From Anaerolineae bacterium (lineage in GTDB: Bacteria; Chloroflexota; Anaerolineae; UBA1429), in contig JAXGON010000012.1 of assembly GCA_040767425.1 (NCBI GenBank), positions 11,764-75,763 of the forward strand: DNA of 64,000 nt, given 5' to 3'. The translations under genes and the position numbers were made by a program. Position 1 is the stretch's first letter, and every line of letters begins with the position of its first letter. The notes below the pieces were generated by a model. That model worked only from the letters and a program-made list of their open reading frames with translations. It did not search any database and had not been told where the DNA came from. Positions 307 through 14,761 of the stretch are shown one piece after another.

Positions 307-1728
307 CTAATAGGCGTGCTTGTCACCTCGCAGGATGTTCACGATAGTCCGCAGGATGATCTTGAGATCAAATAGCAGCGACCAGTTCTCGATATAGTAG
401 AGATCGTACTTGGTTCGTTCCACGATCGACGTGTTGCCTCTGAGGCCGTTTACCTGGGCCCATCCCGTCATGCCGGCCTTTTCCTGGTGTCGCTCCATGT
501 AGCGGGGCACTACCTGCCGGAACTGCTCCACAAAGATGGGCCTCTCCGGGCGCGGCCCTACCAGGCTCATCTCCCCCATCAGAACGTTGATCAGCTGGGG
601 TAGCTCATCCAGCGACAGCTTACGCAACACCGAACCGATCCGCGTTCGACGGGGATCGTCCTCCGATGCCCACACGGCACCCGTAGCGGCCTCTGCTTCG
701 GTTCGCATGGAGCGGAATTTGAGCATCTTGAACGGTTTCCCGTCCAGCCCCACCCGCACCTGGGAGTAGAACACGGGCCCCGGCGACTCGATCTTGATCA
801 GGAGCGCAATAAGCATCATCAAGGGGGAGAGCACCAACAGGCCCACCGCCGAAACGATCAGGTCCATGCCGCGCTTGAGCGTCAGCTTCCAGCCGCGAAG
901 GGCCACATCGCGGACCGTCAGGAGCGGCAGTCCATCCAGGTCGTCGATGGTGAGGCTGGTAGCGATGATTTGGAACAGGTCGGGGAACAGCCGAACGGCG
1001 GTGTTGGCGCGTTGGCAGGCGGCAATCAGGTCCAGCGTCTCGTCGTGCGAGGCATTGATGGTGATGACCACGTCGTTGGCGTCCTGTTCGCGCAGCACGC
1101 GCTCCAGCTCGGAGCGACCGCCGAGGACAGGAACCCCAGCGATCTCTTCCCGGTCCACGTCGTCGACAAACCCGATGACTCGGTATCCCAGATCGGGCGA
1201 CTGGAGGGTCTTTTGCAGGATCATGCGGGCGACGTCGTTGGTGCCTACTAGGATGAGTCGATCGGGATTGGATCGGCGCGCCAGGCGGTGCAACCAGCCT
1301 GTAAAGATTCGCCCCAGCCCCGTCAGGATGATGGCCAAGAACCAGGCATAGATGATCAATCCCCGGGTGAGGTCGGTGCTTTCCGAGTAAAGCAGGTAGG
1401 TAAGGGCGGTCGTGCCAATGGTGGCGATAGAGACGCCCGAGAGGATCGAGTAGAATAGGTCGATTCGCGAATAGCTGCGCCCCAGATGGTACAGCCGGTA
1501 CCAGAAAAAGGTCAGTACGACGGTCACCGCCAGGATGATCTGAATCCCCACATAGTTGCGAAAGGGCCCCAGACGGATAGCGGTGGGAAAGGGTACGGTC
1601 TGGCGCAGCCAGTAGGCCAGATACATGGCGACGGCGGCCATGGCGGCGTCCACCGCCACGGTAATGAGGACGAGGAGGGATTCGAGCCGCCGAGACACTG
1701 GTAAGGCCCTCCTATGCCGAGGCGACAT
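307..1728 (-). CDS. polyprenyl-phosphate glycosyl-1-phosphate transferase (WbaP/CpsE-type bacterial sugar transferase)
   Basis: N-terminal TM helices; C-terminal bacterial sugar transferase domain (KRGMDL...PGPVFYSQ.RVG..G..F...KFRSM...DELPQL.NVL.GEMSLVGPRP). Confidence 0.8.
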   Translation of the reverse strand: MSPRHRRALPVSRRLESLLVLITVAVDAAMAAVAMYLAYWLRQTVPFPTAIRLGPFRNYVGIQIILAVTVVLTFFWYRLYHLGRSYSRIDLFYSILSGVSIATIGTTALTYLLYSESTDLTRGLIIYAWFLAIILTGLGRIFTGWLHRLARRSNPDRLILVGTNDVARMILQKTLQSPDLGYRVIGFVDDVDREEIAGVPVLGGRSELERVLREQDANDVVITINASHDETLDLIAACQRANTAVRLFPDLFQIIATSLTIDDLDGLPLLTVRDVALRGWKLTLKRGMDLIVSAVGLLVLSPLMMLIALLIKIESPGPVFYSQVRVGLDGKPFKMLKFRSMRTEAEAATGAVWASEDDPRRTRIGSVLRKLSLDELPQLINVLMGEMSLVGPRPERPIFVEQFRQVVPRYMERHQEKAGMTGWAQVNGLRGNTSIVERTKYDLYYIENWSLLFDLKIILRTIVNILRGDKHAY

Positions 1729-2623
1729 GCTTGCGCTTTGCCGGGCGGAGCCGGTTGCGCATCAGGGCCGTCCACTTGAGCAGGGCAACGCCTCCATCGA
1801 TGGCCCAGTTAATGGGCGCGGGCGTCTGGGCACGATAGTGCTTGTGGTGAAAGATGCGCATGGCGTCGTAAAAGGCCGTGATGGCGCGGTCACTGGCCTT
1901 GCGACTCGAGGCGCCCTTGACGTGGAGCACGGTGACCTGCGGGTGGTATACGATCCGCCACCCGCGCTGCTTGATGCGGTAGCAGAGGTCGATATCCTCG
2001 CCGTACATAAAGAATGTCTCATCCAGCAGGCCGGCTTGCGCCAAGGCCTCGCCACGCATGAGCATAAAGGCGCCCACCACCGCATCGACGTCGGCCTCTT
2101 GGTCCTCGTCCAAAAACGTGAGGTTGTACTGGCCGAACACGCGGCTGCGCGGAAAGAGCTGGCTGAGTCCCACGATGCGATAGAAAGAGACGGCCGGCGT
2201 AGGAAAGCTGCGGCGGCAGGCCTTGTCTAGCGCACCATCCCGGCGCACCAGCTTGGGGCCGCTGACGCCGATGTCGGGATGGGCATCCATAAACTGAACC
2301 ATCTGTTCCAGCGCTCTCGGCGGCAGGAGGGTGTCAGGGTTGAGCAGCAGAGCATAGCGGGGCGGCTCGCCTCCCTCGCAAAAGCCGGCCTCTCGCAGGC
2401 CGATATTGTTGGCGTAGGCGTAACCCCCGTTGTGGTCGGTGACTATCACCGTTGCCCAAGGGAAGCGCTCTTGCGCCATCTCGGCGCTGCCATCGCTGGA
2501 GGCATTGTCGACCACGATGGTCCGGCACGCCAGCCTCACAGCGGCCTCGGGGATGGTTCCGAGGCAGCGGGCGAGGTCCTCGCGCGTGTTATAGTTGACG
2601 ATCACAACGGTTAGGTCTTGCAT
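1712..2623 (-). CDS. family 2 glycosyltransferase
   Basis: N-terminal VVIVNYNT...VVDNASSDGS GT-A signature with DxD-type region. Confidence 0.75.
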   Translation of the reverse strand: MQDLTVVIVNYNTREDLARCLGTIPEAAVRLACRTIVVDNASSDGSAEMAQERFPWATVIVTDHNGGYAYANNIGLREAGFCEGGEPPRYALLLNPDTLLPPRALEQMVQFMDAHPDIGVSGPKLVRRDGALDKACRRSFPTPAVSFYRIVGLSQLFPRSRVFGQYNLTFLDEDQEADVDAVVGAFMLMRGEALAQAGLLDETFFMYGEDIDLCYRIKQRGWRIVYHPQVTVLHVKGASSRKASDRAITAFYDAMRIFHHKHYRAQTPAPINWAIDGGVALLKWTALMRNRLRPAKRKHVASA

Positions 2624-2688
2624 GCTTGCTCCGTCGCTAAAGGTACGCCAACCATTCTACCACACCGAGGTTGCTGCACCAATGGGGG

Positions 2689-3663
2689 CTAGCGAGGGGG
2701 AGAGGGTGAGACGTCGCGTAGGTGGCGGTGGCGCCACACGATCCCGACGGGATAGCCGGCCATCTTGGCTAGGTCACCCGTGATGACCAAAATGGGCAAC
2801 AGGGCTACCATGCCCAGCCGTTCGCCCCAGCTTGCCGAGGCGAGCTCTGGCCACAGGCGGCGCATGGGGCGCCAGAACATGCCGGCCGCCCCCAGCGCCA
2901 GGGCGGTCAGCCACCATGGCGAGTGGACACAAGCCAAGACCAGCAGCGCCGGGGCGGCCACCAGGTAGGTTCCGTAGCGGATGGCGTGGCGTCCCCGCCA
3001 GAGGTCAGCCTTTCCATCGCCTCTGGCGTAGCGATAGTACTGCTTGGCAAAGGCGCGCAGGCTGGAACGGGGTCGAAAGTGGACCAGCGCATCGGTGGCA
3101 AGGGCAAACTGCGCCCCCTGGCGGCGCATGGCCAGGTCAAACACCAGGTCCTCGCAATAGTCGAGCCACTCGGGGTAGCCCCCGACTCTATCCCAGACGG
3201 CCCTGGTAAAGGCTACCGAACGCGAGGACGGCAAGAAGCTCTTGGCATCCAGCTCGTCCAAACGCGGCAAGGTGATGGTCCCCAGGGCGCGCTCAAAGAG
3301 CGAACGCGGCGCCGACACAAAAACTCCACCCACTACGTCCGGCGGGGTATCCGACGCCAAGGGGGCGACGAGACGCTCTAGCCAATCGGGCGCCAGCCGC
3401 ACGCCGGCATCGGTGACGGCAATGATATCATAGCTGGCAGCCGCGATGGCGCGGTTCCTGCCGGTGGAGATATTGGCGCCAGGCAGCGAGAATGCCCGCA
3501 GCGGAAGCGTGCCCGCTTGCGCGGCTGACTCGAGGCGCTCCCAGGTGCCGTCGGTGGAGCCCCCATCGACGATGACCACTTCATCGGGGCGGCGCGTCTG
3601 CTGCGCTAGCGAGCTCAGCAATGCCTCAATGCTCTCACGCTCGTTGAGCACCGTGGCGATCAC
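2689..3663 (-). CDS. family 2 glycosyltransferase with C-terminal membrane segment
   Basis: TVLNERESI...VVIVDGGSTDGT GT2 motif; hydrophobic C-terminus. Confidence 0.7.
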   Translation of the reverse strand: MIATVLNERESIEALLSSLAQQTRRPDEVVIVDGGSTDGTWERLESAAQAGTLPLRAFSLPGANISTGRNRAIAAASYDIIAVTDAGVRLAPDWLERLVAPLASDTPPDVVGGVFVSAPRSLFERALGTITLPRLDELDAKSFLPSSRSVAFTRAVWDRVGGYPEWLDYCEDLVFDLAMRRQGAQFALATDALVHFRPRSSLRAFAKQYYRYARGDGKADLWRGRHAIRYGTYLVAAPALLVLACVHSPWWLTALALGAAGMFWRPMRRLWPELASASWGERLGMVALLPILVITGDLAKMAGYPVGIVWRHRHLRDVSPSPPR

Positions 3664-3747: not shown

Positions 3748-6246
3748 CTATGCCGGGGCGATCTCACGCCGCGTGTTTCCGTCGTGTCCCACGATCTCCA
3801 GGGCCCAATACGGCGTCCAGAGCAGACCAAAGGCCAGGAGGTCGATGTCTGAGCGTCGCGCGCTTTGAGTTCGCTGGACGATCTGGGTCGGCACCTCATC
3901 CCACCTGCGCCGCTCGGTCTCCAGCTCGCGGTCGCGCTCGGCTACCAGTTCCTCGCGGTCAGCACGGAGCCGCTCCAACGCGTCTTCGCGAGCGTCCATG
4001 GCCTGACGGGCCTTGGCGGTCATGCGGCGCTTTGTCTCGGCTTGCGAGAGACCGCGGCTGCGCTTGTGGCCCAGTAGCAGTCCGACGATGGATTCGCCTG
4101 CCGACAAGACCTCCTGGCGCTTGCGGCTCTCCCATTCAACTTCGGCTTGGCGTAGGCTCGCCTCCTCTTTGGCGATCTTGTCATCTAGCTTGTCGATGGC
4201 CTGCGCGTGCTTTTTTTCGAGCGCCTGCAGGGCAGCGCGCGACCGCTGCAACGCCTCAGCGCGACACCGCTCCGTAAAGGCGAGCTCTGACTCTCCCGGA
4301 TAGGATGTGAGCCCCAACGCCTCGTTATGCCACTGCTCCAGGCCGATGTCGTGATAGACATAGTCCTGAAACGCGTCACGGAGGCGGGTATAGGGCGGCG
4401 AGTCGTTCATCCCGTCAGGCAGCCGCTCATAGTAGGCTCGGCCGGTAGGCTCGGTCTCTAGGTCGTCCAGGCCCTCTACGATCTCGGCAAAGGCGTCCCA
4501 CTGGACGGTGCGGAACGCCTCTGGAAGCGGCAGACGGCAGGCTACCTGGCGCTCCTCGAGGGCGTTGGAGCTGGAATCCACAAAGCGCACCCGCGCCCAC
4601 CCGAGCAACTGGGGACGGTAGATGAGCGCCGCGTCTACGAGTTCGCCGCCGAGCTTGGCTGCCGCCCGCTCTCGGGGCACACTCAGCGCCGCATAGTACT
4701 GCATCACCCGCGAGTTCACCGCGGGTGGCGTCGACAGGAACCCGGCGGAGGTGAGGGCTGACTCGCTGACCAACGAGCTGGCTTTGGCTGCGGCCGCCGT
4801 GCGTCGTGGCGTCTCTGCTGGCCGGCGATCCTTATAGGGGCGCATCAGGTCGGCGACTTGGGTGCGGGTCATGGGCCCCCGGAGGTACGACATGGCCCAC
4901 CGGGTGCGGTAGAGCTGGGGTCCATCCCCATGGACGTTGTGTAGCACAAACACGCGTGATCCCAGCGACGAGATCATGCGGTCCATGTAGCGGCGATCCA
5001 GCAGGGTTCCCGACTGGGAGACAACCCCCTCCATGCCGTCCAGCAGGCGAGCTTTGTCTCGGTCGGTCTGCAGCTTGCCCACGAACCAGGTTCCTGCGTT
5101 AGAGAGCCCCTTATAGTCCAGGTCCATCGGGTTCTGGGTGGCCAATACGACGCCCAGGCCAAAGGCGCGGGCCTGCTTGAACAGAGTGAGCAGGGGCGTC
5201 TTGCTGGGTGGGTTGGCGGTGGGTGGGAAATAGCCAAAAACCTCGTCGAAATAGAGCAGGGCGCGCAGCGAGGTGGTGCCAGGCTGCTTACGCATCCAGG
5301 ATACGACCTGTTCCAGCAGGAGCGTGACAAAGAACATGCGCTCGGCATCGCTGAGGTGGGCGATGTAGCAGATCGAGACGCGCGGCTTGCCCGATGACGT
5401 CCAGAGTAGCCGACCGACGTCGAGGGGATCGCCCTCGCGCCAGGCGGCAAAGCTGGGCGCCGCCACGAGAGCGTTGAGCTGCATGGCAAGGCTCATGCGA
5501 TCACGGCTGGGGTAGAATGTCTCCAGCTCGAAAACGCCCAGGCGCTCGATGGGAGGGTTCTGCACGTCGACGATCAAGCGGCCCAGGTCCACATCCTCGC
5601 CGTTGCGCCAGGCGCGCTCTAGCAGGTTGGAGAGCAAGATGTGCTCACGGCTCTGCACGGGATCGGCGTCGATGCCGATGAGCCCGAGCAAGGCCGATAC
5701 GGTGCTAGAGATCGCCTCGCGCAACGACTCGGCGTCGTCATCCCAGCTCAAATCAGGCGCGTCAAAGCTCTGAAGCACGCTCAGGGGCAGGCCCGACTCG
5801 CTGCCTGGGGTATAGATGGTGAACTCGGCGGCCTCTTTCAGGCGACGGATGCGGTCGCCGTCCTGATCCCACTGCCCGAGCCCATCGGACCAGGTCTGCG
5901 CCGTTTGCTGGGCGTACTCGGCAATGGACTGACCCTTGCGGCGGGCGTCGTCGACGTTGATCCACGGCTCGAAATCGGAAGGGCGTAGCTCGGGGAACGT
6001 CAGGAGCAGGTTGGTCATGTCCCCTTTGGGGTCGATAATGATGGAGGGGATGCCGTCCAGCGCCGCCTCTTCCAGCAGCGTGATGCAGAGGCCCGTCTTG
6101 CCGCTGCCCGTCATTCCGACGCAGACGGCATGGGTGGTGAGGTCGCGGGCATCGTACATAATGGGGTCATCGACCTGATCCTGGCCCGAGTTGGGATCGT
6201 AGGCGCGGCCCAGGTAAAAGGCTCCCAGTCTCTCTTCCACCGCCAT
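3748..6246 (-). CDS. HerA/FtsK-superfamily NTPase (DUF853/YjgR-like) with ~300-aa C-terminal coiled-coil extension
   Basis: Walker A GMTGSGKTG followed by IIIDPKGDMTN (compare HerA/YjgR motifs); Walker B LLYFDEVF; ATQNPMDLD; charged heptad-like repeats in the C-terminal third. Confidence 0.6.
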   Translation of the reverse strand: MAVEERLGAFYLGRAYDPNSGQDQVDDPIMYDARDLTTHAVCVGMTGSGKTGLCITLLEEAALDGIPSIIIDPKGDMTNLLLTFPELRPSDFEPWINVDDARRKGQSIAEYAQQTAQTWSDGLGQWDQDGDRIRRLKEAAEFTIYTPGSESGLPLSVLQSFDAPDLSWDDDAESLREAISSTVSALLGLIGIDADPVQSREHILLSNLLERAWRNGEDVDLGRLIVDVQNPPIERLGVFELETFYPSRDRMSLAMQLNALVAAPSFAAWREGDPLDVGRLLWTSSGKPRVSICYIAHLSDAERMFFVTLLLEQVVSWMRKQPGTTSLRALLYFDEVFGYFPPTANPPSKTPLLTLFKQARAFGLGVVLATQNPMDLDYKGLSNAGTWFVGKLQTDRDKARLLDGMEGVVSQSGTLLDRRYMDRMISSLGSRVFVLHNVHGDGPQLYRTRWAMSYLRGPMTRTQVADLMRPYKDRRPAETPRRTAAAAKASSLVSESALTSAGFLSTPPAVNSRVMQYYAALSVPRERAAAKLGGELVDAALIYRPQLLGWARVRFVDSSSNALEERQVACRLPLPEAFRTVQWDAFAEIVEGLDDLETEPTGRAYYERLPDGMNDSPPYTRLRDAFQDYVYHDIGLEQWHNEALGLTSYPGESELAFTERCRAEALQRSRAALQALEKKHAQAIDKLDDKIAKEEASLRQAEVEWESRKRQEVLSAGESIVGLLLGHKRSRGLSQAETKRRMTAKARQAMDAREDALERLRADREELVAERDRELETERRRWDEVPTQIVQRTQSARRSDIDLLAFGLLWTPYWALEIVGHDGNTRREIAPA

Positions 6247-6759: not shown

Positions 6760-6895
6760 AGCGGCTCCTCTTGAGCATGACCAGCGAGTTGACAGCCTAT
6801 TAGGGGGATGGTATACTCTGGTATGTACCCAAGGGGGGTATCCTATGGAGCCGCCCTTTTGTGAGCAGTTCAGGCCTTGGGCCAAAGGAGACAAC

Positions 6896-7237
6896 ATGAG
6901 CGATCAGGTCAAGCATGTGACGGATGCCAGCTTTCAGCAGGATGTACTGGAAGCGGATACCCCGGTTCTGGTGGACTTTTGGGCTCCCTGGTGCGGTCCC
7001 TGTCGCATGATCGCACCCATCGTCGAGCAACTAGCTGAAGAGTATGACGGCCGTCTAGCGGTTGTCAAGATGAACACCGACGAGAACATGGAGACGCCCA
7101 CGGGGCTGGGCATTCGTGGCATCCCCACGCTGATCCTGTTCGCCGATGGGGAAGAGGTGGAGCGGATCGTGGGGGTCACGCCCAAGCCGACGCTCAAGCG
7201 CAAGATCGACGCCATCCTCGAGGCTGAGATGGCGTGA
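6896..7237 (+). CDS. trxA: thioredoxin
   Basis: 113 aa with canonical WCGPC active site and GIRGIPTL cis-Pro region; AAAGGAG RBS upstream of the ATG at 6896. Confidence 0.9.
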   Translation: MSDQVKHVTDASFQQDVLEADTPVLVDFWAPWCGPCRMIAPIVEQLAEEYDGRLAVVKMNTDENMETPTGLGIRGIPTLILFADGEEVERIVGVTPKPTLKRKIDAILEAEMA

Positions 7238-7641
7238 GACAGCTCCTGGCGGAGAACTGGTTGGCGCTGCTCGTCTTGGGCGCGCTGGGTGCGGCCTACT
7301 TGTTGTTTCGCACCAGCCCGTCTGACCTGGCTTCGCTGGAAGAGGTGGATCAGATCATTGGAGCGGGCCGCCCCGTCGTGATCCAGGTCTATACCAACAC
7401 TTGAACGGCTTGCTTCCTAGCCAAGCCTGTCGTCGACGGGATCGAGCGATCGTTGGGAGAGCGGGGTACCGTGCTGAGATTCTCCGCTACTGGAACGGTG
7501 GGGAGGGCTCTGGCAGCGAGGCTGGGCGTGCGCGCCGTTCCCACCTTGGTGGTGTATGACGCGCAGGGTGACGAACTGCTCCGCCAGGTTGGATCCTTGA
7601 ATCAGGCCGAGGTGATAGCAGCGCTAGGTATTGATGACTAG
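7234..7641 (+). CDS. membrane-anchored thioredoxin-like protein with in-frame TGA (7402-7404) at the CxxC nucleophile position; candidate selenoprotein (UxxC), or else a disrupted gene
   Basis: One continuous frame from GTG 7234: N-terminal TM helix, then VVIQVYTNT-[TGA]-TAC-FLAKPVVDGIE aligning to Trx [24 protein letters not shown], then RAVPTLVVYD...GSLNQAEV matching Trx GIPTLLLF...GALSKGQL. Hairpin GGCTTG-N9-CAAGCC begins 3 nt after the TGA. Confidence 0.45.
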
Positions 7642-7669
7642 CGGCGAGAGAGACAAGTAGGAATCCACT

Positions 7670-7858
7670 ATGCCCATCTATGAATACGAATGTGTCGAGT
7701 GTGGGACGCGCTTTGACAAGTTTGTGCGCAGCGCCACGCGCCCCGTGGAGGTGGCTTGCCCCACCTGCAAGAGCGAGAACTGCCGCAAGGTGGTTTCGGC
7801 CTTTGCGTCAACGGGTGTCCAATCCAGCGGTGCCAACTGCGCCCCATCTGGTGGTTGA
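7670..7858 (+). CDS. FmdB-family zinc-ribbon protein
   Basis: MPIYEYECVECG...CPTC N-terminal signature typical of the FmdB putative regulatory family. Confidence 0.7.
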   Translation: MPIYEYECVECGTRFDKFVRSATRPVEVACPTCKSENCRKVVSAFASTGVQSSGANCAPSGG

Positions 7859-7904
7859 GGACTCACGCGCCGAGGCTAGTTAGCCTCCTTTCAGGATACG
7901 ATCG

Positions 7905-8180
7905 GTGGGAAGGGCCATGACGACGCTAGAAAGCGCCGCGCGAGACGATCTGGTCCTGCGCCTGCGCCGCATCGAGGGCCAGACCAAGGGGATCCAGCGC
8001 ATGCTCCAGGAAGGACGGAGTTGCGCCGAGATCCTTGATCAACTCGCCTCCGTGCGCGCGGCTACACGCAGCGCCAGCATCGCGCTCTTGCGGCACTATG
8101 CGGCTACCTGCGTCGAATCGCCCGAAGCAGAGGTGGACTTGAGCGGAATCCTCGACCTCGTGTTTCGGGCCACCGACTAG
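7905..8180 (+). CDS. CsoR/RcnR/FrmR-family metal-sensing transcriptional repressor
   Basis: RLRRIEGQ.KGIQRM....C.EIL.Q...V..A......LL.HY..TC aligns with B. subtilis CsoR including the Cys...His...Cys ligand positions. Confidence 0.75.
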   Translation: MGRAMTTLESAARDDLVLRLRRIEGQTKGIQRMLQEGRSCAEILDQLASVRAATRSASIALLRHYAATCVESPEAEVDLSGILDLVFRATD

Positions 8181-12490: not shown

Positions 12491-14761
12491 CTAGCGGCTC
12501 CAGCACGGGCTCTGCTCGATGGCTTCGCCCAAGGTGAGGTTCAGGCGACGCCCCGTGGTCAGATCCAGCGTGTAGATGTCCCAGCCGCCATCGCGGTTCG
12601 AGTAAAAGGCGATGCGCTCGCCCACGGGCGCCCAGGTTACGCCATGATCATTGGCGTACACGTCCTGGCTGAGGTTCCGCACATTGGTCCCATCGGCGTC
12701 CATGCCATAGATCTCCATGTTGCCATCGCGGTAGCTCTCCCAGGCGAGCTGTTGCCCATCGGGTGACCAGGCCGGCGACTGATCGCTGGCGGGATCGGTG
12801 GTAAGGCGTTGCACCGACAAGTCGGCCAGCGAGAGCAGGTGGATGTCGAGATTGCCCGTGCGGTTCGACACAAAGGCGATCTCGTTGCCCGTCGGTGACC
12901 AGGCGGGGCTATAGTCGGCGGCGCTGTGAGAGGTGAGCCGCCGCTGGCTGGTTCCCTCGGCCGTCATCACGTACAGCTCCCAACGGCCATCGCGAAAGCT
13001 GGCAAAGGCGATCTCGGTACCATCGGGTGACCACGATGGCGTCCAATCATCGGCCGCATGGAGCGAGAGGTTGGTCTGGTCAGAACCGTTGCGGTTCATG
13101 ACATAGACCTCGCGGTTGCCATCGCGGTCCGAGACAAAGGCGATCTTGCGGCCGTCGGGCGAGAGGACGGGCAAGGTCTCGTTGCTAGGCGTATTGGTCA
13201 GGCGAACGGGGTCCGACCCGTCGCTGCGCATGATATAGATATCCCAAGGCTTGTCGGGATCCTCTTTGGCTTGGTAGACGATATAGCCCTGCGCTAGGCC
13301 CGCCTCAGGCGTGGGAAGCGCCTCAGAATCCTCGGGCTCGGCTGTGGGGGGAACGTCCAGTGTCGGGCGATGCATCCAGACGACGGTTACATCGCGCGAC
13401 CGCCATACCCACGCGATGGCGACGGCGAGCAGGATGGCGACGCTCCAGAGGGCGATGCCTGTCCAGTCGATTTGGCGGCGGCGGCGGGTGCTGTGCACCT
13501 TGACGCGGCGCGAGCGGTAGGTGCCGCTGGAGGCGATGGTGGCGTCCAGCGGGTGGGTGCGGCGCACCCAAACCCGCAGGATGTCGGATGCCACGCGATA
13601 GGTGGGCCCTCCTAGCTCGTCCAGAATCCCGCGAGCGTGCAGTTCGGCCAGCCCGCGATTCACATCCCCTCGGAGCAAGCGCACGCTGGCCGCTAGCAGA
13701 CGGTTGACGTCGCCAGGCGTGCAGATCCCATGCTGCCCCGTGGTCTCGCACATGGCGGAGAGCACCAGCCGCGCGCTGTCGCTGAGCGGCTCCCACTGCT
13801 CCCGAAAGTGTTCGTCTGCCGCCTGGAGGACATCCTCCGAGAGATGGCTGACACCATTGGCAGGAACCCAACCCATCTTGGCATAATGCTGGTAGCAAAA
13901 GGAGCCAAAGAGCTGGAGCAGATAGGGATCGCCGCCCGCGAGCACGTACGACGCACGAATGATCTCATAGCCCAGGGCTAGCTTGCCTCGGAGCGGAATG
14001 GCCAGAAGCTCTTCGGACTCTTGCTCGTCGAGGGACGACAACTCGATGACGCTGGCTCCCTCGAGCATGGCCTGATCGAGGTCAGCCAGGTGTCCCTCTA
14101 TACAGAGCAGCAGGGCCAACTTGGCCGATGAGGACAGCGCTCGCTGAGCCGAGTGCAGGATCGCCAACCAACTGCTCTTGCGTGCTGTGAGGTCGGCCGT
14201 TGTGATCTGATCGAGGCAGATTAGGCAAGGGCGCTCCGCCTCCATCCTGGCCTCGAGGGCTGACCAGGTCTCGGTGGTAGGTTCCTCTGCCTGCTGAGAC
14301 TCCTGGCTTTCTCCACCCAGCTTGTGCGCGATGGTCTGGATCAGCCCCGCCTCTGAACGGATCTGGGCCGTTGTCAGGTCGATCTGGATCACCTGCCAGC
14401 GTGGGTGCAGGCGTAGAGCGAGCTGGTTCACAAAGGATGTCTTGCCCAGGTGGCGGTGCCCAAACAAACAGATGATGCGCTGTTCCGACCCAAGCATACC
14501 GTGCAGCTGGGCGAACTCGGCATCTCGCCCAACAAAGAGATCCTGGTCAGTCAGGGGACGATCGGTGATGAATGGGTTGCTGAACGACATGCTGCTCCGA
14601 AATCGGCAAGCAGAGGGTGCGGCCATCACGCCAAAAGGCTTGGCAGGGTGCGACAACGGGCCGAGTATAGCATCCGTGGGCGGGCACGGCAAAGATGGGT
14701 CGGGGCCGCAAAGAGCATCGTGCGTGGCTGGCTCGCTGGCTGGTGGGCGCAGAACGGCCAT
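12491..14761 (-). CDS. signal-transduction ATPase (AAA/NACHT-like P-loop) - TM helix - TolB-like WD40/PD40 beta-propeller protein
   Basis: Walker A GHRHLGKTS near the N-terminus; a single TM (WTGIALWSVAILLAVAIAWVW); C-terminal tandem PD40-type repeats (SPDG..IAF.S.RDG..E.Y). Confidence 0.55.
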   Translation of the reverse strand: MAVLRPPASEPATHDALCGPDPSLPCPPTDAILGPLSHPAKPFGVMAAPSACRFRSSMSFSNPFITDRPLTDQDLFVGRDAEFAQLHGMLGSEQRIICLFGHRHLGKTSFVNQLALRLHPRWQVIQIDLTTAQIRSEAGLIQTIAHKLGGESQESQQAEEPTTETWSALEARMEAERPCLICLDQITTADLTARKSSWLAILHSAQRALSSSAKLALLLCIEGHLADLDQAMLEGASVIELSSLDEQESEELLAIPLRGKLALGYEIIRASYVLAGGDPYLLQLFGSFCYQHYAKMGWVPANGVSHLSEDVLQAADEHFREQWEPLSDSARLVLSAMCETTGQHGICTPGDVNRLLAASVRLLRGDVNRGLAELHARGILDELGGPTYRVASDILRVWVRRTHPLDATIASSGTYRSRRVKVHSTRRRRQIDWTGIALWSVAILLAVAIAWVWRSRDVTVVWMHRPTLDVPPTAEPEDSEALPTPEAGLAQGYIVYQAKEDPDKPWDIYIMRSDGSDPVRLTNTPSNETLPVLSPDGRKIAFVSDRDGNREVYVMNRNGSDQTNLSLHAADDWTPSWSPDGTEIAFASFRDGRWELYVMTAEGTSQRRLTSHSAADYSPAWSPTGNEIAFVSNRTGNLDIHLLSLADLSVQRLTTDPASDQSPAWSPDGQQLAWESYRDGNMEIYGMDADGTNVRNLSQDVYANDHGVTWAPVGERIAFYSNRDGGWDIYTLDLTTGRRLNLTLGEAIEQSPCWSR

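Follow-up and report, generated by a model that had tools for sequence, protein, structure and literature searches.

ATPases of the HerA/FtsK class power chromosome segregation and conjugation, the resection of DNA ends, the packaging of viral genomes and several phage-defense systems, and in every studied case, to our knowledge, a partner or an accessory domain sets the role of the motor. What, then, is the role of such a motor when its gene lies among glycosyltransferase genes? The question is raised by a 64,000-nucleotide stretch of the genome of an Anaerolineae bacterium (Chloroflexota; assembly GCA_040767425.1, contig JAXGON010000012.1, positions 11,764 to 75,763 of the forward strand), referred to here as the window, in which an 832-residue ATPase is encoded at exactly 3748..6246 (-), from an ATG start and with the stop codon included. 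An earlier note on this DNA, made from the sequence alone, had assigned the protein to the HerA/FtsK/YjgR clade, as a DUF853 (YjgR-type) member with a long C-terminal tail, and had taken its position between a HAD phosphatase gene and two GT2 glycosyltransferase genes to suggest polymer export, or else a single-gene defense or DNA-handling function.

The ATPase almost certainly represents a new family of the HerA clade, one whose motor is joined to a C-terminal accessory module (the C-module) and is encoded with no conserved partner gene. The open reading frame (ORF) is a real gene and not a chance ORF, because it has full-length homologs (E = 0 in sequence searches), a codon-usage score of 297, and a ratio of nonsynonymous to synonymous substitution rates (dN/dS) of 0.094 over the whole gene when the window copy is compared with its 89% identical ortholog. 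The length and position of the ORF given in the earlier note were correct, all of the motifs quoted there are present, and the catalytic residues K50, T51, D334, E335, K357/R360 and Q371 are invariant in 118 of 118 homologous sequences.

The motor domain and its place among HerA, FtsK and YjgR

Both Walker signatures, GxxGxGK[ST] and hhhhDE, are found in the ATPase (Table 1), as is an A369TQNP373 motif in which T370-Q371-N372 is invariant across the 118 homologs. The strand that follows the Walker A helix is of the IIIDPKGDM type, typical of DUF87/HerA/VirB4-type ATPases. The HerA/FtsK clade has as its signature a glutamine at sensor-1 and an arginine finger upstream of strand 4 (PMC10853773), and the ATPase has both: Q371 stands after the strand at residues 362-370, and R360, together with K357, just before it. 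The segment containing R360 and Q371 aligns to 'KEGRKYGIG...SQRP' of HerA.

A full-length AlphaFold2 model was built on the 118 homologs, with a mean predicted local distance difference test score (pLDDT) of 86.7. It has a RecA-like fold, with a best Foldseek E of 2.9e-13 against PDB, and of the 138 PDB matches at E<=1e-3 the best 50 are all HerA or the C-terminal domain of DndH. HerA hexamer structures (9x1m, 4d2i, 8wiv, 7wrw and others) and the DndH domain were matched at E 3e-13 to 1e-9 with 12-17% identity, the first three of these HerA structures at 3e-13 to 3e-12. The highest target-normalized overlap was with the C-terminal domain of DndH (7es4), at a target-normalized template modeling score (TMt) of 0.66 over 373 residues. 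DndH and the 'HerA/FtsK capture' systems also share the clade-defining sensor-1 glutamine and arginine finger (PMC10853773). DndH differs in being about 1700 residues long, with nuclease and DNA-binding domains, and in belonging to a three-gene defense system; the ATPase has none of these.

Curated sequence libraries recognize nucleotide-binding segments only. Pfam DUF87 is matched over residues 29-81 with 30 bits (cut-off 23.2), TrwB_AAD_bind, AAA_10, Zot and FtsK_SpoIIIE score at or under threshold, and the NCBIfam models TraD, CedD, CedB and HerA_antiphage reach 20-26 bits against cut-offs of 366-800. A PDB search with the sequence found HerA of the Sir2-HerA system (8wiv) at 4e-5, and with a profile of the family HerA ranked first.

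HerA, as known from HerA-NurA, Sir2-HerA (Nezha) and DUF4297-HerA, resembles the ATPase in its RecA-like motor with Walker A and B motifs, sensor-1 glutamine and trans-acting arginine, and in the helical insertion after the Walker A strand, which in the ATPase lies at the place of HerA's helix-bundle domain. HerA is a hexameric double-stranded DNA translocase, and the same is presumed by analogy for the ATPase. The two differ in that their sequence identity is only 12-16% and that the ATPase has no HAS barrel and no partner gene, and adds a tethered 340-residue C-module absent from all HerA structures. The HAS barrel is the surface by which HerA binds NurA, Sir2 or DUF4297. Its absence, as reported in the earlier note, was confirmed: only 32 residues precede the motor, with a β-hairpin in place of the barrel, and no HAS match was found in Pfam at E<=10. 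The start position is identical across family members, and the N-terminus is conserved. HerA sensu stricto was rejected as an identity, there being neither an N-terminal HAS barrel nor an adjacent effector gene. The residues of T. kodakarensis HerA that contact DNA are Q262, R328 and K332; their transfer onto the ATPase family was dropped, since only in the Walker and sensor segments can the sequence alignment to HerA be trusted.

Of the broader placement in the earlier note, then, the HerA/FtsK superfamily stood and the narrower DUF853/YjgR assignment did not. YjgR (PF05872, HerA_C/DUF853) is likewise a stand-alone HerA-like ATPase with no linked nuclease and no assigned function, but it is about 500 residues long, has no C-module, and matches the ATPase only in the Walker A region. 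The Pfam score of 22.4-24.1 bits covers profile positions 5-64 of 502, and the PDB match to YjgR (11kk, E 0.031 over residues 38-80) drops out entirely in the family-profile search. Membership of FtsK/SpoIIIE was also rejected: PF01580 scores 17.4 bits against 24, no transmembrane segment is present, and the C-terminus has another fold. The ATPase is without the N-terminal membrane domain, the gamma (KOPS-reading) domain and the transmembrane segment of FtsK, and its putative anchoring module is C-terminal and differently folded. Neither a transmembrane segment nor a signal peptide was found in the protein, the top 19-residue Kyte-Doolittle value being 1.57, inside the ATPase core. As judged from sequence and predicted structure, the protein is a soluble, catalytically intact ring-motor ATPase of the HerA clade in the FtsK-HerA superfamily.

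The C-terminal module and its tether

The motor is followed by a disordered, variable linker (dN/dS 0.15 between the window copy and the 89% ortholog) and then by the C-module. The earlier note had described this region as a coiled-coil and charged tail of about 300 residues. The coiled coil is present, but it belongs to a predicted folded domain of 340 residues, in which a hairpin with helices of 71 and 56 residues is inserted between the two halves of a β-domain with very long strands. The C-module modeled by itself (residues 491-832) gave a pLDDT of 90.6. Its invariant residues are W583, E652, F657, R660, R708, W782 and W810-x-P812-x-W814, and in sequence terms these W/F/Y/P residues, together with E652, R660 and R708, are structural or binding residues and not a catalytic constellation. 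Both modules are under strong purifying selection: between the window copy and the 89% ortholog, the motor has a dN/dS of 0.052 and the C-module one of 0.12.

Conservation within the hairpin peaks at the tip, whose consensus is R708-K-R-E-E-L-L-S-A-G717-E-S-[VLI]-[VLI]-G-[ML]-[LF]-L-G726-R-R-[SR]-S-R-x-L-S734-x-A-x-[RS]-K-R-R741-M-T-x-K-A746-K. A six-residue hydrophobic loop bounded by glycine on both sides is thus flanked by basic clusters, and the net charge is +6 over residues 715-750 (36 residues), the rest of the protein being acidic. The tip is predicted to be flexible, with pLDDT below 50 at residues 719-733.

No match to the C-module was found in Pfam, PDB or BFVD (viral structures), and Foldseek returned only weak, generic coiled-coil hairpins (p85 iSH2, Wzc, CorA and EmrA). 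The adaptors EmrA, MacA and AcrA and the periplasmic domain of Wzc have a topological likeness only, a hairpin emerging from a split β-domain with a conserved tip motif; the Foldseek matches are not significant (E 0.01-0.1, template modeling score <0.3), and those proteins are periplasmic or membrane-anchored, whereas the ATPase is cytoplasmic and its hairpin is fused to a motor. A profile search (hmmsearch) with the C-module covered 1.84 billion representatives of 50% identity clusters and matched 3,651 proteins at E<=1e-3, of which 1,056 were at E<=1e-30. In all of the matches listed the C-module reaches the C-terminus of the protein, and among them it was not found in any other domain architecture. 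Short matches are gene fragments, such as P0122, which starts mid-motor at '...ATQNPVDIDYKGL'.

In two family members, P0211 (1075 residues) and P0193 (a 585-residue fragment), the linker has grown to about 250 residues of low-complexity sequence rich in P, Q and Y. Both also bear a similar low-complexity tail at the C-terminus. All full-length family members bear this 340-residue C-module behind a flexible linker. The C-module appears, from these sequences, to be specific to the HerA-like motor and joined to it by a flexible tether of variable length. FtsK, of the same superfamily, is built on a similar plan, its motor being tethered to an anchor by a variable P/Q-rich linker, and the resemblance of the two linkers therefore suggests the C-module as an anchoring or targeting part.

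Table 1. Parts of the ATPase and neighboring genes, with positions in the window
Feature	Position	Strand	Basis or remarks
N-terminal β-hairpin, aa 9-32, in place of HAS barrel	6151..6222	-	AlphaFold2 strands 9-17 and 22-32
HerA/FtsK-class motor module, aa 33-475	4822..6150	-	Foldseek, Pfam DUF87, AlphaFold2 pLDDT mostly >85
Walker A, G44MTGSGKT51	6094..6117	-	invariant in 118 homologs; coordinates verified
IIIDPKGDM motif, I69-M77	6016..6042	-	D72, K74, G75 and D76 invariant; coordinates verified
Predicted helical insertion of ~210 aa (aa 78-287), inside motor after Walker A strand	5386-6015	-	AlphaFold2 model
Walker B, L330LYFDEV336	5239..5259	-	D334 and E335 invariant; aligns with HerA Walker B
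K357-x-x-R360 (arginine finger region), strand 362-370, sensor-1 T370-Q371-N372-P373	5128..5178	-	K357, R360, T370, Q371 and N372 invariant
Disordered variable linker, aa 476-494, tethering motor to C-module	4765..4821	-	pLDDT <50 at aa 476-490; alignment variable
C-module β-domain, first half, aa 495-653	4288..4764	-	AlphaFold2; invariant W583 and E652
Predicted antiparallel coiled-coil hairpin, aa 654-787 (helices 654-724 and 732-787)	3886..4287	-	AlphaFold2 models
Conserved hairpin-tip motif, aa 708-747	4006..4125	-	per-column frequencies, 118 sequences
C-module β-domain, second half, aa 788-832	3751..3885	-	AlphaFold2 strands 789-795, 801-820 and 825-831; invariant W810-x-P812-x-W814
Small HAD-like hydrolase	6289-6750/6897	-	directly upstream of ATPase; Pfam Hydrolase
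GT2 glycosyltransferase adjoining ATPase	2689-3663	-	downstream; Pfam
Second GT2 glycosyltransferase	1712-2623	-	downstream; Pfam
WbaP-type Bac_transf priming transferase	307-1728	-	downstream; Pfam
GT2-GT2-WbaP cassette	307..3663	-	downstream of ATPase; context only
Thioredoxin gene, divergent from ATPase		+	Pfam

Spread of the family and the genes around it

A word-indexed search with the ATPase gave at least 8000 matches, of which the best 120 are 826-934 residues long and 50-96% identical, and these 120 are labeled only 'hypothetical', 'ATP-binding', 'DUF87' or 'helicase HerA domain-containing'. In a scan with one genome per species, at least 599 species genomes carry the family, at 44-52% identity over the full length and with the gene chromosomal in complete genomes. 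The bacterial carriers belong to Chloroflexota (Anaerolineae, Caldilineae, Dehalococcoidia and Ardenticatenia), Nitrospirota, Planctomycetota, Gemmatimonadota, Acidobacteriota, Chlorobi, Ignavibacteria, Bacteroidota, Myxococcota, Fermentibacteria, Krumholzibacteria and WOR-3, and the archaeal carriers to the Asgard group (Loki-, Frey- and Jordarchaeia), Bathyarchaeia, Methanomicrobiales, Methanofastidiosia and Methanomassiliicoccales. Members are about 830-870 residues in length. A neighbor-joining tree has a star-like shape in which the phyla are mixed, although Nitrospira, Chlorobi and Planctomycetaceae each form a local clade, a pattern that fits old transfers between phyla followed by vertical retention. 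No description of the family was found in the literature on YjgR, DUF87, HerA-like coiled-coil proteins or MADS. It is a large, stand-alone, previously undescribed and chromosomal family, present in many bacterial and archaeal phyla.

A role in conjugation or packaging, as a coupling protein or as a terminase for an integrated element or a virus that contains a membrane, was also weighed, and weak sequence matches do run in that direction (TraD, TrwB, IcmO, CedB/CedD, and phrog_2666, a 'terminase large subunit' group of FtsK-type viral packaging ATPases, at 3e-10). The scores are far below the cut-offs, however, and the collections are nearly empty of relatives. A type IV secretion system (T4SS) coupling protein of the VirD4/TraD/TrwB kind was rejected with TIGR03743 at 26 bits against 366, PF10412 at 19-20 against 20.5, no transmembrane anchor and no T4SS genes. 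The family had no match in 50,697 phage records, and 72,556 plasmid records held no member, only three distant, motor-only relatives at 28% identity. Relaxase, T4SS, capsid and integrase genes are not linked to the gene, synteny on the chromosome is stable within lineages, and base composition around the gene is uniform in the window, with no compositional sign of an island. There is one relative in 2.9 million IMG/VR viral contigs. Taken together these observations make a mobile-element transfer or packaging role very improbable.

The IMG/VR relative (L093:8004-9422; IMGVR_UViG_3300035698_017915) is a motor-only protein of 472 residues, 50% identical to residues 7-473, that ends at the linker, and the C-module is encoded nowhere in that locus. 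Its contig has 44% GC and carries unidirectional small ORFs mostly without PHROG matches, an AAA ATPase and a UDP-glucose-dehydrogenase-like gene; the motor could be a captured packaging motor or a decoy. One of the three relatives from plasmid records is in Tsukamurella tyrosinosolvens (L087; NZ_LR134464.1, 180907-184173), where the 28% identical motor relative forms the C-terminal domain of a 1088-residue DUF87 protein, in an island that holds VapBC, DUF559 and a DEAD-box helicase and interrupts a ribosomal-protein operon. This is a different architecture, probably of a defense or mobile element.

For 86 loci, genes were called by codon usage, the model being trained separately for each locus on the ATPase gene found there, and the annotation of one Anaerolineae locus (L001) served to validate the calls. 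In an all-against-all clustering of neighbors the largest neighbor family is common to at most 12 of the 86 loci, and the upstream gene is about as often on the same strand (38 loci) as on the opposite one (39 loci). The 138 immediate neighbors fall into 207 Pfam families, led by ABC_tran (7), DUF2780 (6) and GT2 (4, the window counted). No NurA, Sir2, DUF4297 or other nuclease partner is conserved in the 86 loci or occurs among the 138 neighbors, and no paralogous HerA-like ATPase was found among the neighbors. Within about 10 kb of the ATPase gene in the window, a Pfam scan of the proteins found no NurA, Sir2, relaxase or T4SS genes, in agreement with the earlier note. In eight Nitrospirota loci (L040, L048, L051, L061, L065, L066, L078 and L080) uvrA is found upstream, in the same direction as the ATPase gene; the spacing is 39 bp in one locus and 111 bp in another, and reaches 5.2 kb in the set. 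This points only weakly, and within one lineage, to a connection with DNA repair.

The glycosyltransferase neighborhood itself is as the earlier note described it, with the flanking GT2 pair, the HAD gene and the co-directional WbaP-type gene all recognized by Pfam. Only 84 bp separate the ATPase gene from the co-directional GT2 gene, with no terminator-like site in between, and the thought that the ATPase might power the translocation or assembly of a polysaccharide made by the GT2/GT2/WbaP products is readily understood. Wider comparison nevertheless tells against it. A phmmer search of ±8 kb around the ATPase gene in 80 loci found homologs of the window's GT2 genes in four of them and a WbaP homolog solely in the window itself; the remaining three GT2 loci (L012, L017 and L020) are related Chloroflexota in which RmlD-like and GT2 genes lie directly upstream and co-directional. 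In the 89% identical relative (L089) the order HAD-ATPase-GT2-WbaP is kept and the ATPase is intact, but the adjoining GT2 gene (L089:9597-10101) is a pseudogene remnant with an internal deletion, retaining residues 1-92 and 275-316 only. A 74% relative (L090) has the same upstream block as the window (radical SAM, CsoR-like, Zn-ribbon, thioredoxins and HAD) and instead of the cassette has AIM24, DUF554, rubrerythrin, Grx-PDZ, PFOR and encapsulin downstream. In relatives of about 55% identity (L001, L005 and L091) the downstream genes are again an AIM24/DUF554/rubrerythrin-type block, usually with Gamma_PGA_hydro first, and L001 has the upstream thioredoxin and HAD genes in common with the window. 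Because the cassette is missing from L090, L001, L005 and L091, all with common flanking synteny, and its GT2 gene has decayed in L089, the GT2-GT2-WbaP genes are a recent, lineage-specific insertion. The ancestral downstream block (AIM24, DUF554, rubrerythrin and PFOR) was not found elsewhere in the window.

The protein offers export little support either. Polysaccharide export or assembly machinery of the Wzc, ABC or Wzx/Wzy type was rejected for want of a transmembrane segment and of conserved glycan linkage, archaeal members stand in unrelated contexts, and the match of the hairpin to the periplasmic domain of Wzc is not significant (Foldseek E 0.013, probability 0.28). The glycosyltransferase context is very probably incidental, and polymer export, as the earlier note had read it from that context, is scarcely credible. 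That note had named two outcomes that would speak against it, no conserved linkage to glycan genes and a clear best match to a characterized family of different role; the first was found, whereas no characterized family was matched.

HAD orthologs stand upstream of the ATPase gene in L089, L090 and L001 (80%, 67% and 52% identity), but the broad set of 80 loci has them in just 2: the HAD gene is co-inherited within an Anaerolineae sub-lineage and is not linked family-wide. A promoter-like site lies at 6783-6755 (-). In four Anaerolineae loci (L001, L005, L016 and L091) Gamma_PGA_hydro (PF05908) directly follows the ATPase gene, co-directional, the two genes overlapping by 4 bp at one extreme and lying 34 bp apart at the other; it is followed by AIM24 in L001, L005 and L016 and by the DUF554/rubrerythrin/PFOR block in L001, L005 and L091, with encapsulin (Linocin_M18) in the downstream blocks of L001 and L005. 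This coupling is tight but confined to the lineage, and L090 and the window have lost Gamma_PGA_hydro. A conserved redox/metal mini-cluster (6845-8180, +) runs divergently from the HAD and ATPase genes. It is made up of a thioredoxin, a small thioredoxin_2-like ORF, a Zn_ribbon_8 gene and a repressor of the CsoR-like Trns_repr_metal kind, has a B12/radical-SAM gene after it, and is syntenic in L001, L089 and L090, down to about 55% ATPase identity. More distant genes of the window include radical-SAM, YfiH-like, YggS-like, P5CR-like and STAND-type NTPase genes (Pfam). The last, at 12491-14761 (-), encodes a 756-residue STAND-like NTPase (AAA_16/AAA_22, weak nSTAND6) with a helix-turn-helix domain and a C-terminal PD40/WD40 β-propeller, an architecture often seen in signaling or conflict-system components.

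Many HerA-family ATPases are components of defense systems (Sir2-HerA, DUF4297-HerA and DndH), and the ATPase could in principle be a single-gene anti-phage or anti-plasmid device, a HerA-like sensor and motor that intercepts invading DNA. Its best PADLOC matches are to mad8 (1.8e-12) and to HerA models (1e-8), the tree records transfer between phyla, and the motor-only copy on a viral contig is a possible decoy. The PADLOC census of neighbors also gave apparent matches to mad3 (7), mad8 (3) and mad2 (3). The MADS profiles were built from HHpred alignments to PDB homologs, and mad6, mad7 and mad8 are mandatory in MADS. A direct scan identified the neighbor matches as ABC-transporter ATPases, UvrA and methyltransferases. 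With the profiles PDLC04135 (mad3), PDLC04140 (mad8) and PDLC04134 (mad2), E values of 1e-21 to 1e-104 are reached by UvrA and by common ABC-transporter ATPases, and such matches, if interpreted one gene at a time, give rise to false defense calls. Since they were built from HHpred/PDB alignments, the mad profiles act as generic P-loop, ABC and methyltransferase models, and the ATPase's own mad8 match is a generic P-loop match too. MADS/Mad8 membership was rejected, the gene being solitary and the profiles generic. The ATPase lacks an effector domain, its conserved catalytic residues are confined to the motor, its neighbors are housekeeping genes with no conserved partner and no enrichment for defense islands, and its very high conservation across phyla (45-55% identity over 830 residues, dN/dS 0.05-0.12) is unlike that of fast-evolving defense genes. 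A defense function accordingly seems improbable.

A candidate anchored translocase

We suggest that the ATPase acts as an anchored hexameric DNA translocase, a statement that, taken whole and with its mechanism included, we hold at a little under even confidence. By analogy with its structural relatives the motor would assemble as a hexamer, and ATP would power the passage of a linear polymer through the pore at its center. Double-stranded DNA would be the likeliest polymer because the closest folds are all double-stranded DNA translocases, because the weak sequence affinities are to the DNA pumps TraD, CedB/CedD and phrog_2666, and because other studied stand-alone HerA homologs have roles in DNA maintenance; DNA is nonetheless named as the substrate only tentatively. 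The six tethered C-modules would serve as a docking or targeting device and, since they have no conserved catalytic-type residues, would contribute no catalysis. Their hairpin tips may bind a fixed cellular target, whether a membrane surface, nucleic acid or a conserved protein, and the case for the tip as a docking element is evenly balanced. The motor would work while anchored, by analogy with the variable P/Q-rich tether of FtsK. Its role would lie in the cell's own genome maintenance or DNA handling, outside glycan export and phage defense, and a cellular, non-defense role is probable.

Several considerations weigh against this proposal. DNA translocation is drawn by analogy from superfamily membership alone, the structure models are of single chains, in which hexamer and pore are presumed, and the geometry between domains in the full-length model is uncertain (predicted template modeling score 0.61). 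No SOS/LexA-type boxes, of four consensus types, were found in the upstream 270 bp of 74 loci, and transfer between phyla is a trait of accessory and defense genes also. A hydrophobic and basic tip suits docking on membrane, nucleic acid or protein equally, and some members of the FtsK-HerA superfamily, EssC/EccC and VirB4, handle proteins in secretion.

The last two points lead to another kind of motor, a protein or polymer translocase, an unfoldase or a membrane remodeler, in which six tips would insert in the membrane and the ring would act on a protein or lipid-linked substrate. A six-residue hydrophobic loop bracketed by glycines, with arginine and lysine clusters, is a pattern typical of monotopic membrane-insertion loops, and an α-hairpin set in a β-domain is the layout of periplasmic adaptors that form hexameric tubes (weak EmrA match, E 0.1). 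No secretion-system genes or membrane partners are linked to the family, however, the adaptor and Wzc matches are not significant, and the closest folds are all translocases of double-stranded DNA. A motor that does not act on DNA is unlikely, though distinctly less so than a defense device, and given the membrane-active look of the tip motif it is an alternative to be taken seriously.

Returning to the anchored DNA translocase, its fullest form is a long shot that we mention as speculation: an unrecognized machine of archaea, Asgard included, and many bacterial phyla, in which a HAS-less hexamer with its hairpins docked on a membrane or scaffold would act as an anchored pump of DNA or polymer for chromosome handling or DNA transfer, independent of both FtsK and HerA-NurA. 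On that reading the C-module would be a new fold.

Two lessons for annotation follow from this locus. The ATPase gene should not be named from its glycosyltransferase context, and PADLOC matches to 'mad3' or 'mad8' are no evidence of a defense system. It is important to emphasize that the family is a good target for experimental characterization even though the glycan hypothesis was wrong, for a very large, conserved family pairs a HerA/FtsK-class motor with an accessory module of no known relative and has no partner gene. If its substrate and the target of the hairpin tip were known, the superfamily would gain a new functional branch, and an unrecognized DNA-handling process could come to light in many environmentally important lineages that are hard to cultivate.

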